NCBI RefSeq assembly: GCF_017348835.2
Contig: NZ_CP071375.1
Reading direction: 5' to 3' (one strand)
DNA length: 64,000 nucleotides
Source of the DNA: Escherichia coli
GTDB taxonomy: Bacteria; Pseudomonadota; Gammaproteobacteria; Enterobacterales; Enterobacteriaceae
Part shown: piece by piece, positions 51,201 to 54,200 of the stretch
Numbering within the stretch: the first letter of the stretch is position 1
Layout of the letters: each line of letters begins with the position of its first letter
Position numbers: made by a program

Positions 51201-54200
51201 CCATAAAGAAGCCTAAAAAGACAGAACGTATTGTAACAATAGTGCTCCCCATCTGAACCTGAGCTCCTCCGTTAAAAGCCAGTGTTCGTATGCCAGAAAG
51301 AGTATCCTGCGGTATTTCCCCCAGTCCCCCACTCGCTGTTAGATATGGTGTTAAATTTATTGGCATAATAAAACCCCCATTAACTTCATTAACATTTTAC
51401 TTGATTTCCTGTTGAAGCATCTTACTTATCACAATGCTTTCACACACCATTATCAGTCTTGCAAAAGATAAGACTCCATTATCAAGCCAAAATAAATTTA
51501 ACTTCATTAACAAACATCACCATGGCATGCCAACAAAAACCGGAGCCGGACTCCGGTTTTGTGAAGCTGTCGGGTTACTTCATCCCGCCAATATTTTCCC
51601 ACGTCCCGTCAGCACGCAGAATTTGCAGCGGTCTTACCACGCACTGTATCTGCTTTTTATCTGCATCCAGTATCACCACCTGCGTGATTACCCTGTCCTG
51701 CTCCGGAATAATGCCATTCTCATCTGACTCCAGAATGTCTGCCGGTCCCAGACGCAGTTGTGCTGTAAGTAACTCCCCGTGTTCACGGTCATCATGCTTT
51801 CCGTACCCGCACAGACGCTGCATAAGTTTTTTTAGTACGTTCATGTCATTCTCCTGTTCTGCCTGTATCACTGCCCACTTCATCCAGCCCCTTAACATCC
51901 TGCCACGGCCCGTCACCAAACCTGACCTGCAAATGCTGAAACAGCCCCTGAACCTGTGTGGCATCTTTGGGGTCAAGAAAGGTCAGTCCAGTGATGAGCG
52001 CACCATCTGTACCCGGGAACCAGCCATTGCTGTTTGTCTCAATAATGCTCGCCGGCCCCAGACGAAAACGGATTTGTGTCTCCCCCGGGTCGCCCTTCGG
52101 TCCCTGAGGTCCGGTTGATGGTCCCGGCATGTGACGGCGGGAAGCCCTCCACCAACAGAATGACGCTGTACTGACCGTACTCAACGTCCATGCTGTAACG
52201 ACCGGCTTCATCCGGATTTTCAGAGGCCACCGTGTTCACCACCACCGTGCTGCTGGTCCGTCTGGCTTTCAGTTGAATGGTGCAGTTCTCTACCGGTTTT
52301 CCTGTGCCGTCTTTCAGTACACCTGAAATCTTTACTGCCATATTCACCCCACAAAAAAGCCCGCCTGAACCGGCGGGCTGTCATAACACTGTGTTACCTG
52401 GCTAATCAGAACTTATAACCGACACCCACGATGAAACCGTCAGTGCGCCAGTCGCCACTGCCGGAGCCTTCATAAGCAATATCAATGGCCACGGATTCGG
52501 TCGGGTTAAACTGCACGCCAGCTCCCCACGCCAGAGAGGTGTCGCTGTGGCGACCGTCATCACTTCCGGTCAGCACATAGTGCGTTTTCCCCTTGTTGTC
52601 AGTTACGCGAAGATAATCCCCGGAGAAAGTCGACACACGGCTGTAAGCCACACCCGCCATCGCATACGCGCTGAACCATTCATTCACGCGCACAGACGGC
52701 CCCGCCATTACGCTGAACCAGCGGTTACGCACGGAATCTTCATGCCAGCGGGTATCGCTGTAACGGGTAAGCTGGCGATTCTTGTCTCCTGCATGGCGGT
52801 ATTTTTTGTTGATCGCCGCATCCACACGTAACAGCGTCTCTTCCTCATCAGGACGCCCCATAGCTGACACCTTCCAGACCATCGTTACCACCTGGACCAG
52901 TGATGAGCACAGACGCTATGGCAACAGCCCCACCACCAATAGCAGCTGCAACAGCCTTGCGTAATGACGGCGACATTATTCACCTCTCGCAGCCTTACGC
53001 TTATCTTCTTTAATCTTGAAATAAAGATTTGTCAGATACGTCAGCAAGCCAAACACCAGGCTACCCAATACGCCTATTGCCACCCACTGGGATGGGGAGA
53101 CTTTGTCCAGCAACTGCAGTAGCCAGTATCCCGTCCCCACCGCTGACGTGGTGTATGACACACCTGTTGTTATTTTTTCCATCTGGTACATACCCCGTCT
53201 CCCGTTATCCGGAAGCTGACAACAATAAAAAGCCACCAGTTAATTCCTGATGGCCCTGATGCATAAACGTCATAATACCTGACTGTTATGATTGACAATA
53301 ATGATAATGTTTATATAGAAAGGTTCCCGATGTGTGTTACATATCATTTCTCCACGGGGAATATCCCCACGCCAGCGCAGACTCTTTTACCCGTTCTCTT
53401 CTGCGCTGGCTCTTTTTTATTATGCTGCTGCATTTACCTCTGGCACCATGCTTTCTATCTCAACACAATACGTGCTACTTCTTGTAACCAATATCATAAC
53501 GATTAATCGACATAGAATTTCTCCCGTGTACAGGAACAGAGTTAAAAAGCCGGAACCGGAATCAAATCACAGGATGACCATCTGCCAGTGGCAGGTCATA
53601 AAAAAAAGGCCGCGCCATGCGCAGCCAGAACTCACAAGGAAAATGATAGAAGGAAATAACATTAGTGATGTACGCATGGCGCCTCCCGCTAAGTTCTGCA
53701 ATGATCAAACAGAACTCGCTACGTGCCCTTAAAACTCGATCATTTAGCCCCTCCAAGGAGGATTCACCATGCGGTTGATTTTTTAATAAACAGTAAACAA
53801 AAAAGTCAAGAATTATTCATTCTGTTCTTTCATCATCGGCCACAGCAATACCACAATGCCGCAGACCAGAGCGCCATCAGTCAGTACCAACATTATCCTG
53901 CTGGTGAAATCCATCATCACCATCACTAAAAGCAGGATCACAACAGCAAGCAGACACAGTTTATAAAACAATGTTCAGAAAACGCATTCAGCATGCCTAA
54001 GGTTCTATTCCTACGAATAGCCAACTTGCAACTTAAAATATTATTTATGCAGCCAATTAAATTCTGGTCCTTACAATATCAACCTGAAGATTCTTATCTT
54101 GTGCTGATTGATAAATGACAAACCTTTTACTACCTGCATTGAAAGAAGTAGACAAAACCAGACAATTATCATAACGAGCAAGAACATAATACCAACCATC

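Follow-up and report, generated by a model that had tools for sequence, protein, structure and literature searches.

A short membrane-protein gene in the Q-to-holin segment of an Escherichia coli prophage is probably an orphaned copy of tciB

Introduction

A described counterpart of the gene analyzed here is tciB of phage P1 (YP_006541.1, P1_gp075). It belongs to the C1-controlled early ban operon, where it stands between tciA, a TerB-domain gene whose stop codon it overlaps, and tciC. The name TciB, which alludes to tellurite or colicin resistance and to inhibition of cell division, is a borrowed one that refers to the homology of the neighboring TciA to TerB (PMC9603915). In a CRISPRi screen P1 tciA, tciB and tciC were all non-essential, and knock-down of tciB had no effect on plaque formation (PMC10695390); we found no other functional datum for the family. 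A second relative is XECs205 of E. coli O157:H7 Sakai, a DUF3927 paralogue with an allele beginning MTVKLRL that resides in another lambdoid prophage. It has been reported as a "novel" translated intergenic ORF with a predicted inner-membrane product of two transmembrane segments (Hücker et al. 2017, PMC5597208), and its translatome RPKM values were 15.9 in LB, 6.1 in BHI and 1.3 under stress, a very weak signal from uninduced cultures in which few reads covered the ORF (PMC5597208 supplement). This is the sole ribosome-profiling evidence that we found for the DUF3927 family, and the allele described below does not appear in the novel-ORF list of that study.

Here we describe a member of this family in a window of 64,000 nucleotides of E. 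coli DNA (the whole stretch that was analyzed, from contig NZ_CP071375.1), in which a preliminary description had pointed out a short hydrophobic ORF. We assign a probability of about 0.8 to the reading that this ORF is tciB, a DUF3927 member with phage P1 TciB as its archetype, and that it is an orphaned copy without tciA.

Results

The ORF is an annotated member of the DUF3927 family

The ORF runs from a TTG start to a TAA stop and encodes 52 aa, MFYKLCLLAVVILLLVMVMMDFTSRIMLVLTDGALVCGIVVLLWPMMKEQNE (ORF listing). An in-frame TGA occurs two codons 5' of the TTG at 53971 and limits the frame to 52 aa, while the first in-frame ATG is codon 17 at 53923 and gives 36 aa. There is one copy of tciB in the window. 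The preliminary description had placed the ORF at 53803-53961; its existence and length are borne out, but that interval is displaced 10 nt downstream of the true one, 53813-53971. The ORF had also been called unannotated, which is incorrect as RefSeq/PGAP contains the exact 159-nt CDS under WP_000499454.1 ("DUF3927 family protein") and the phage 434 record names it TciB. In RefSeq the exact CDS is present in 681 of 5,426 complete E. coli genomes, and PGAP calls it in O26 11368 and PE164; DNA of the window type is at least 99% identical in 670 genomes, and the exact 52-aa protein is found on at least 995 contigs. The gene is already known from Pfam, PHROGs, RefSeq and the curated phage 434 genome. 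In full-text literature we found "DUF3927" solely as a figure label in one paper, and we found neither the accession nor peptide strings of the window tciB.

The surrounding 4 kb contains 69 ORFs of at least 25 aa, several of which exceed tciB in length. By itself the open frame is within chance expectation, and it is the homology detected by sequence comparison that goes beyond chance. The ORF matches Pfam PF13064 with 53.0 bits (E = 3.4e-14, profile positions 7-49 of 53; gathering score 25 bits) and PHROG 1470 ("TciB-like") with 63.4 bits; phage P1 TciB scores 106 bits against the family profile over its full length. In an alignment of 20 family sequences D21 and D32 are invariant and F22, L35, W44 and P45 are at least 90% conserved, and the window protein keeps all of them. 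It also has the family layout of about 50-55 aa, with two hydrophobic segments around D-F-T-S, a W-P and a short charged tail. At E <= 1 the only Pfam matches of the ORF are DUF3927 and a spurious one to LMP1, with no Hok/Gef and no holin among them. The family profile has no sequence relative in the PDB at E <= 1. Among defense-system models, those of PADLOC match neither TciA nor TciB nor the PHROG 1521 protein encoded upstream, and NCBIfam gives only a spurious sub-threshold match. A tblastn search of plasmids and phages returned few matches, a number that probably reflects masking of most of the hydrophobic query by the low-complexity filter.

Hydrophobicity, topology and start codon

The expectation of a small, very hydrophobic membrane protein holds, with a GRAVY of 1.47 and two hydrophobic segments that have hydropathy maxima at residues 9-15 and 38-41. 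AlphaFold2 predicts one continuous helix over residues 2-51 (pLDDT 91.6) and not a hairpin, so that two membrane segments and a single helix are both candidate topologies.

Further ATGs occur at codons 19 and 20. None of the candidate starts (TTG and the ATGs at codons 17, 19 and 20) has a Shine-Dalgarno sequence; the TTG also has no anti-SD pairing, and the best anti-SD duplex, -3.9 kcal/mol, precedes ATG19/20. Judged from sequence, products of 52 aa and of 33-36 aa are both possible, and family homology favors 52 aa. The shorter product is kept as a possibility because the first 20 codons evolve fast and the ATGs cluster at 17, 19 and 20.

tciB usually follows a TerB-domain gene

The usual site of tciB is directly 3' of tciA, a TerB-domain gene encoding about 142 aa, with the tciA stop codon overlapping the tciB start codon as GTGA or TGATG. 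A hydrophobic segment is not evident in TciA, and one TciA homologue has a faint DUF533 match. A TerB-domain gene is immediately upstream with a 1-4 nt overlap in P1 and at loci L094, L095, L096, L097, L098, L218 and L221. These 8 independent distant loci are joined by another clade (IMG/VR) in which 75 of 80 loci have tciA upstream, each of them with GTG as the start codon and 4 nt of overlap. The linkage is a contextual regularity derived here that is outside of the Pfam definition; a copy that lacks tciA is consequently an orphan rather than a non-member.

Paired tciB is under strong purifying selection, as estimated from codon substitutions. In the 80-locus clade dN/dS is 0.10 for tciB and 0.036 for tciA (dS 0.56-0.91), values in which dN is biased downward by the choice of loci by protein similarity, and the segregating sites of paired tciB fall at codon positions 1, 2 and 3 in numbers of 23, 13 and 45. 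This within-clade estimate was used since dS is saturated in most deep family pairs.

The window copy lacks tciA

A tblastn search with five TciA proteins found nothing across the whole window, nor was TciA found by tblastn at the O26, phage 434 and phage 2B8 loci. In DNA alignments with the L086, L090 and L094 alleles, homology sets in near codon 4 (AAACTG); the sequence further upstream is unrelated. The stop-start overlap with the preceding gene is lost, leaving an 85-nt gap. In sister E. coli alleles tciA remains only as a pseudogene with a common in-frame stop, and when loci were selected through their flanking DNA, 7 of the 24 tciB copies of these sister alleles carried a frameshift. Additionally, E. 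albertii and MTVKLRL-type copies exhibit frameshifts, as well as repeat expansions within the second hydrophobic segment.

Selection on the window-type allele

Comparison of window-type with MTVKLRL-type tciB, which rests on 52 codons, gives an overall dN/dS of 0.61-0.69. It is 0.23 for codons 21-52 and 1.4-1.8 for codons 2-20, a result that rejects omega = 0.1 at ~2e-8 and does not reject neutrality. The substitution pattern suggests that the first ~20 codons, encoding the first hydrophobic segment, diverged at a near-neutral rate, with codons 21-52 more conserved. An initial scan of viral contigs for the family alignment gave identical copies only and was useless for selection tests. Loci for polymorphism were re-chosen by a flanking 25-mer, as an earlier choice by protein identity was biased. 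In this flank-selected sample all 91 window-type copies are intact, and there are 2 segregating sites in the 159-nt ORF versus 7 in the 85-nt upstream spacer. The intact copies, the low polymorphism of the ORF, the ratio for codons 21-52, persistence in phage 434 and the XECs205 footprints would fit continued use of the gene.

Neighborhood of tciB

The segment between Q and the holin gene is a known cargo hotspot that carries Stx, NanS-p esterases and Pas sRNAs. The features surrounding tciB in the window are listed in Table 1. A lambda-type Q gene and a putative promoter, which we take to be pR' from its likeness to that of lambda, are located about 1 kb upstream of tciB on the same strand, and tciB is itself upstream of the holin gene. 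The proposal that it belongs to the pR' late transcript is therefore plausible. What had been described as a membrane-protein pair is a single gene in which a 1-nt deletion at about 54321 generates ORFs of 172 and 80 aa. This gene is 99.6% identical to the intact O26 copy with one gap at 54321 (blastn), and PGAP marks it as "frameshifted" in PE164.

PasD begins about 41 nt 3' of the tciB stop codon. The Northern probe published for PasD, which has coordinates 1060260-1060432 in E2348/69 (PMC8550237 supplement), matches exactly at 53616-53639; the STnc100 covariance model scores 37.7 bits here, under its gathering score of 47. An intrinsic terminator is present at 53626-53608. Promoter-like hexamers TTGACT (53809-53804) and TTAAAA (53786-53781), separated by 17 nt, start 4 nt past the tciB stop; these were picked out visually, and the promoter scan did not report them. 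PasD and its terminator thus stand between tciB and the holin gene, and downstream of the latter is a truncated SAR-endolysin stub fused to a Lom/Ail remnant (PGAP features, PE164). On the plus strand there is no Rfam match across 53813-53971, and a consensus scan, a weak form of evidence, found promoter-like sites only at 53279-53308 and 54139-54166, neither of which is placed for antisense transcription over the 5' end of the ORF. An accurate map of the Q-to-holin segment should aid interpretation of RNA-seq and Ribo-seq data in pathogenic E. coli.

Table 1. Coordinates of features in and around tciB, in window positions
Feature	Position	Strand	Basis
lambda-type Q gene (55052-55675) and pR'-like promoter TTGACT...GAAACT (~55008-54975)	54975..55675	-	ORF translation; PGAP "antitermination protein"; sequence reading
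247-aa multi-pass membrane protein gene (PHROG 1521, WP_001302581.1)	54057..54814	-	PHROG 1521, 513 bits
85-nt spacer upstream of tciB, in place of the tciA 3' end	53972..54056	-	DNA alignment and tblastn
tciB/DUF3927 ORF	53813..53971	-	ORF listing; PGAP; PF13064; PHROG 1470; phage 434 CPT_434_69 "TciB"
possible alternative 36-aa product (DFTS motif, second hydrophobic segment, tail)	53813..53923	-	ATG at codon 17
PasD-family Hfq-dependent sRNA (related to STnc100/EcOnc13)	53600..53772	-	Northern probe match
phage-21-type class II holin (pinholin) gene, next late gene	52976..53191	-	Pfam PF04971, 111 bits; PGAP in PE164

Discussion

Together tciA and tciB constitute a two-gene accessory cassette of temperate enterobacterial phages, in which tciB comes second. 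Given the overlapping stop and start codons, TciA and TciB would probably be made together, and gene linkage suggests that TciB could anchor TciA in the membrane or be its membrane-embedded partner. In the window this cassette is broken, with tciA gone and the sequence 5' of codon 4 replaced. For its transcription the remaining tciB would depend on the late transcript that Q antiterminates from pR', as a mere passenger; it would probably be translated weakly, and may be a partner-less, possibly vestigial copy that spreads with a successful prophage module found in phage 434 and EHEC/EPEC prophages. The identity of the gene, its family, the loss of tciA and the pattern of selection we count as observations; for the inferred part, namely partnership, late transcription, weak translation and vestigial status, we regard the odds as about even. 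DUF3927/TciB seems to be obligately paired with a TerB-domain protein through overlapping stop and start codons, with strong purifying selection on the paired form, which offers a testable hypothesis for a family with a borrowed name. The widespread EHEC/EPEC/434 allele can serve as a natural control in tests of this partnership, and conservation of an orphan tciB across hundreds of genomes should not be read as function.

The orphan might instead work alone as a late small inner-membrane protein that affects lysis timing, membrane potential or superinfection exclusion, or that acts with the PHROG 1521 protein. In support of such autonomy, the 91 intact copies, the spacer more polymorphic than the ORF, and the constrained codons 21-52 with every family-invariant residue retained are accompanied by carriage in the viable phage 434, by a PHROG 1521 gene that always precedes this allele, by a position just 5' of the holin gene and by a reading frame kept in mosaic alleles P0023, P0024 and P0026. 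However, the copies are so nearly identical (>= 99% in 670 genomes) that their intactness may reflect only recent spread. The TTG start lacking a Shine-Dalgarno sequence, the neutrally evolving N-terminal half, the frameshift of the PHROG 1521 gene in the window itself, the damaged E. albertii and MTVKLRL-type copies, the lack of a holin or toxin model match and the location of the P1 homologue outside of the lysis cassette also argue against it, and on balance we consider autonomous function doubtful. Less probable still is a pair of related ideas taken jointly: that after the loss of TciA the remnant, at 52 aa or 33-36 aa, was co-opted in phage 434 and EHEC/EPEC prophages as a stand-alone late membrane peptide affecting lysis timing, membrane energization or superinfection exclusion, or that an intact tciA-tciB pair would be a membrane stress or anti-phage module of which the window copy is a natural loss-of-partner variant. 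We similarly give only a small chance to the true product being a 33-36-aa single-pass peptide from ATG17/19/20, with the first 16 codons now an untranslated leader. The contrast in dN/dS between codons 2-20 and 21-52 would fit such a product, as would ATGs located where paired relatives show V-V-A-I or V-V-M-V, the sole (weak) anti-SD pairing ahead of ATG19/20 and annotation of the 36-aa form (P0096) on 82 contigs by some pipelines. Yet codons 1-16 are open and strongly hydrophobic and line up, without a shift, with the first hydrophobic segment in all relatives, stronger structure is predicted around ATG17-20 (-16 to -17 kcal/mol) than around the TTG (-11.4), and both PGAP and the phage 434 curators picked the 52-aa form.

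The preliminary description had suggested a peptide that is toxin-like or a lysis accessory, or else a chance ORF. A killer peptide resembling type I toxins or holins might be anticipated from the short, very hydrophobic product, from a prophage setting that adjoins a holin gene and an sRNA, and from Hok/Gef genes that lie a few kb upstream in the same prophages. This reading is very unlikely, as no toxin or holin family matches at E <= 1, PADLOC is empty, neither an antisense promoter nor an Rfam antisense RNA lies over the ORF, and PasD, encoded 3' of it on the same strand, is not complementary to it. Moreover, the family is marked by linkage to a TerB-domain gene rather than to an antitoxin RNA, and the P1 homologue resides in the early ban operon and is dispensable for lytic growth, its knock-down being harmless to plaques (PMC10695390). 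A chance ORF, or DNA conserved for another reason such as its position upstream of the PasD promoter, draws on the abundance of ORFs of this size in the region, the missing ribosome-binding site and the PasD promoter-like hexamers that begin right after the stop. Chance is excluded by purifying selection at the family level: family HMM scores are far over threshold, and homologues exhibit coding-type substitution (dN/dS 0.10, third-position excess) in PasD-free contexts including P1. We give this reading almost no weight.

Several described systems can be compared with the orphaned tciB. Like the S pinholin of phage 21 (PF04971), TciB is a small two-segment membrane protein of a lambdoid late operon. 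In contrast to the pinholin it is shorter, has no HMM similarity to it, is without a dual-start motif or strongly basic C-terminus, and has homologues outside of lysis cassettes; the real pinholin gene of the window prophage is 577 nt downstream of the tciB ORF. XECs205 differs in being an allele of ~60% identity with a tciA pseudogene upstream. In E. coli YebE/DUF533 and the N-terminal region of DjlA, a TerB-like cytoplasmic domain and a transmembrane segment are combined in one polypeptide. By analogy, TciA plus TciB would be this arrangement split over two coupled genes, with the window copy lacking the TerB-like part. P1 TciB is 42% identical to the window protein over its full length (54 versus 52 aa), both share VDFTS, DG, WP and K, and both occur in temperate coliphages. 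The window copy, unlike that of P1, is without tciA and tciC, has an uncoupled TTG start and is located in the late Q-to-holin region, whereas P1 tciB is distant from the P1 lysis genes. Virtually the same gene, in the same module, is CPT_434_69 of phage 434 (UMO75333.1), which also occurs in phage 2B8; its protein is the same as that of the window save for the start codon, in a 501-nt region of 99.0% identity. Phage 434 has a Q82-type antiterminator, while the window has a lambda-type Q and a frameshifted upstream membrane gene. In phages 434 and 2B8 a sialate O-acetylesterase (SASA) gene is present between the module and the holin gene, which the module abuts directly in the window. Nevertheless, the order of PHROG 1521 gene, tciB and a PasD-like terminator-bearing element is common to both phages and the window.

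Identification and annotation of the tciB open reading frame

The short hydrophobic ORF on the minus strand is, with high confidence, tciB, an already known and annotated DUF3927 gene that lacks its usual partner, the TerB-domain gene tciA, in this copy. Although the preliminary description took it to be unannotated, PGAP calls exactly this 159-nt CDS as WP_000499454.1 in E. coli O26:H11 11368 and in PE164, the latter being 99.8% identical to the window over 8 kb. The protein matches Pfam PF13064 with 53 bits (cut-off 25) and PHROG 1470, “TciB-like”, with 63 bits. Phage 434 carries the same module at 99.0% identity, with the gene named TciB by curators, as does phage 2B8, and TciB of phage P1 is the family archetype (106 bits over the whole profile; 42% identity to the window protein). 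A 361-nt query around the ORF matched 693 records from 689 genomes, mostly EHEC and EPEC, out of 5,426 complete E. coli genomes, and the median genome had 5 copies; the feature there is labeled “DUF3927 family protein”. The exact window protein occurs on at least 995 contigs. The family is small: 1.84 billion cluster representatives include just 24 at E <= 1e-3, and all members whose source is named come from Escherichia (E. coli or E. albertii). tciB is an ordinary accessory gene that databases already list, with no function assigned.

The length first assigned to the ORF was right, while its position, 53803-53961, was 10 nt too low. An in-frame TGA two codons 5' of the TTG limits the product to 52 aa, and the 36-aa peptide predicted from the first ATG is borne out, this ATG being codon 17 (53923).

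Features around tciB in the window
Feature	Position	Strand	Remarks
Q gene	55052-55675	minus	207 aa, essentially lambda Q
Presumed pR'-like promoter region	about 55008-54975	minus	TTGACT…GAAACT just 3' of Q, taken to resemble that of lambda
PHROG 1521 gene	54057-54814	minus	247 aa, WP_001302581.1; membrane protein, function unknown
tciB	53813-53971	minus	52 aa from TTG: MFYKLCLLAVVILLLVMVMMDFTSRIMLVLTDGALVCGIVVLLWPMMKEQNE (ORF listing and sequence)
Promoter-like TTGACT, 17 nt, TTAAAA	53809-53804; 53786-53781		from 4 nt past tciB stop; absent from consensus-scan output
PasD-family sRNA	53600-53772	minus	Hfq-dependent; EPEC PasD1/PasD2, EHEC EcOnc13; directly 3' of tciB
PasD Northern probe (published)	53616-53639		exact match
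PasD terminator	53626-53608	minus	
WP_207184226.1	53334-53732	plus	132-aa PGAP “hypothetical protein” (PE164)
Esr41-like match	53331-53420	plus	weak; 32 bits, gathering score 102
Phage-21-type pinholin	52976-53191	minus	within 52406-53236 segment
Endolysin-Lom/Ail fusion	within 52406-53236	minus	3' of pinholin

Genomic setting and expression

tciB lies about 1 kb 3' of the lambda-type Q gene and the pR'-like promoter, on the same strand and 5' of the pinholin, a position that agrees with transcription on the predicted late transcript. A consensus scan of 53200-55200 gave no tR'-type terminator between this promoter and the next gene. The upstream “membrane-protein pair” of the preliminary description proved to be one PHROG 1521 gene, split into ORFs of 172 and 80 aa by a single-base deletion in an A-run at about 54321. 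This gene is always found 5' of the window-type tciB (phage 434, phage 2B8, O26 and PE164).

Ribosome profiling of O157 Sakai lists a DUF3927 paralogue of the sister MTVKLRL-type allele, XECs205, among translated intergenic ORFs, with a ribosome coverage value that reaches 3.0 in LB, where depth is very low, and 0.14 and 0.05 under the two other conditions (PMC5597208). The window-type allele is absent from that list. The window tciB is probably weakly translated.

By E2348/69 coordinates the PasD 5' end lies at about 53772, 41 nt past the tciB stop. The Rfam STnc100 covariance model scores 37.7 bits here, under its gathering score of 47; STnc100 has been reported as PasD-related (bioRxiv 10.64898/2026.05.13.724894). 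The PGAP protein WP_207184226.1, which runs antisense across PasD and its terminator, is probably a spurious call. Beyond the pinholin, a SAR endolysin retains only its first ~40 codons, fused to a 5'-truncated Lom/Ail gene, and spanins, terminase, head and tail genes are deleted. The endolysin stub joined to the Lom remnant points to a heavily deleted prophage, and the loss of these genes to a defective one.

Linkage of tciA and tciB in relatives

All distant family members with context examined carry a TerB-domain gene of ~142 aa directly 5' of tciB with overlapping stop and start codons, as in P1 (TGATG) and the viral loci L094, L095, L096, L097, L098, L218 and L221. Lambdoid prophages carry the two genes between Q antiterminator and holin. 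A second scan of viral contigs, aimed at a different clade (relatives of the variant P0078), gave 80 IMG/VR loci (L222-L301). In 75 of these tciA is intact and shares 4 nt, GTGA, with tciB; this sequence holds both the GTG start of tciB and the tciA stop codon. At two loci tciA is missing although upstream sequence is available. As a rule, therefore, DUF3927 genes start with a codon other than ATG, and the TTG of the window is less odd than at first sight. In this clade dN/dS is 0.10 for tciB and 0.036 for tciA (dS 0.56 and 0.91), although the ranking of these loci on protein similarity pulls dN down to some extent, and segregating sites fall 23/13/45 by codon position. DUF3927 is thus a genuine protein, strongly constrained when paired with tciA. 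This linkage rule is a modest new point.

Anti-defence-type genes lie a few genes 3' of the intact pair in L095 (Acb2/Tad1-hairpin, 4964-5320) and L098 (Tad2-like, 5262-5939), which suggests a cargo hotspot.

Orphan state of the window copy

Searches by tblastn with five TciA proteins found no TciA in the 64-kb window or in the O26, phage 434 and phage 2B8 loci. In DNA alignments, homology between the window tciB and other E. coli alleles begins at about codon 4 (AAACTG); 5' of this the window has unrelated AT-rich sequence, whereas other alleles have the tciA 3' end and GTGA overlap. Between tciB and the nearest gene 5' of it lie 85 nt. A Shine-Dalgarno sequence is missing from every candidate start: the anti-SD duplex comes to +0.4 kcal/mol at the TTG, while ATG19/20 reach -3.9 at best. 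That this widespread EHEC/EPEC/434 allele is an orphan is a further modest new point. In three E. coli prophages with the MTVKLRL-type allele (L086, L090, L092), tciA is kept solely as a pseudogene ~430 nt 5' of tciB, 88-92% identical to intact TciA. The in-frame stop shared by all three (…GECEAS*KAK…) implies one inactivation event that later spread; the L086 copy has also lost its start.

A set of 115 copies was picked through exact identity to a 25-mer of the downstream flank, independently of the ORF. Of its 24 MTVKLRL-type members, 7 carry a frameshift in the second hydrophobic segment or tail. All 91 window-type copies are intact, with 2 segregating sites in the 159-nt ORF versus 7 in the 85-nt upstream spacer (five recombinants left out), but they are close to clonal. 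Between the two alleles dN/dS is 0.61-0.69; omega = 0.1 is rejected (P about 1e-7) and neutrality is not. The ratio is 1.4-1.8 in codons 2-20 (17 non-synonymous versus 5 synonymous differences) and 0.23 in codons 21-52, versus ~0.1 in both halves of the paired clade. This split suggests that the first hydrophobic segment has drifted yet stayed hydrophobic while the part from DFTS to WP is better kept, although no comparison over 52 codons is decisive. Either the first segment came under looser constraint once the partner was gone, or translation now starts at an ATG cluster (codons 17, 19 and 20) peculiar to the window-type allele; both explanations would fit.

Protein anatomy and topology

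In an alignment of 20 members a short, basic N-terminal stretch leads into a hydrophobic segment (residues 5-20), then come a D21-F22-T23-S24 motif and a second hydrophobic segment with D32-G33, and W44-P45 precedes a short charged tail. Both aspartates, D21 and D32, are invariant. The window protein has a GRAVY of 1.47 and two hydropathy maxima. AlphaFold2 on this alignment returned a confident, all-helical model (pLDDT 91.6) with a single continuous helix over residues 2-51. We favour, without regarding it as settled, a hairpin whose DFTS turn would lie at one membrane face, since the 41-residue hydrophobic run is too long for one straight-helix bilayer crossing. We found no solved structure for the family. 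Four E. albertii variants (P0048, P0066, P0071, P0072) carry one to three tandem copies of GGWRLEA or CGIVGLWD inside the second segment; these in-frame expansions should disrupt it and look like decay.

Possible role of TciB

The TciB name was assigned in P1 from the resemblance of the neighbouring TciA to TerB (PMC9603915); TciA matches PF05099 in profile searches. Our literature search found no paper discussing DUF3927 and no functional data on tciB beyond a P1 CRISPRi screen in which tciA, tciB and tciC were non-essential (PMC10695390). The preliminary description offered a toxin-like or lysis-accessory peptide, or chance. An open frame by itself means little here, as 69 ORFs of at least 25 aa, many longer than tciB, occur in the surrounding 4 kb; the purifying selection on paired copies nevertheless leaves a chance ORF poorly supported. 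A toxin or holin would suit a hydrophobic peptide next to a pinholin, but is likewise poorly supported, with no match among defence-system models.

We give a probability of about one half to TciB serving the TerB-like TciA as its membrane partner or anchor, a reading drawn from the obligate linkage of the two genes, their overlapping stop and start codons, the purifying selection on both and its relaxation where tciA was lost. The partner-less window copy may be vestigial; it might conceivably keep a stand-alone role or give a truncated product. In YebE and DjlA a TerB-like domain and a transmembrane segment belong to a single chain, and TciA and TciB would split between two proteins what these unite, a likeness that is an analogy only.
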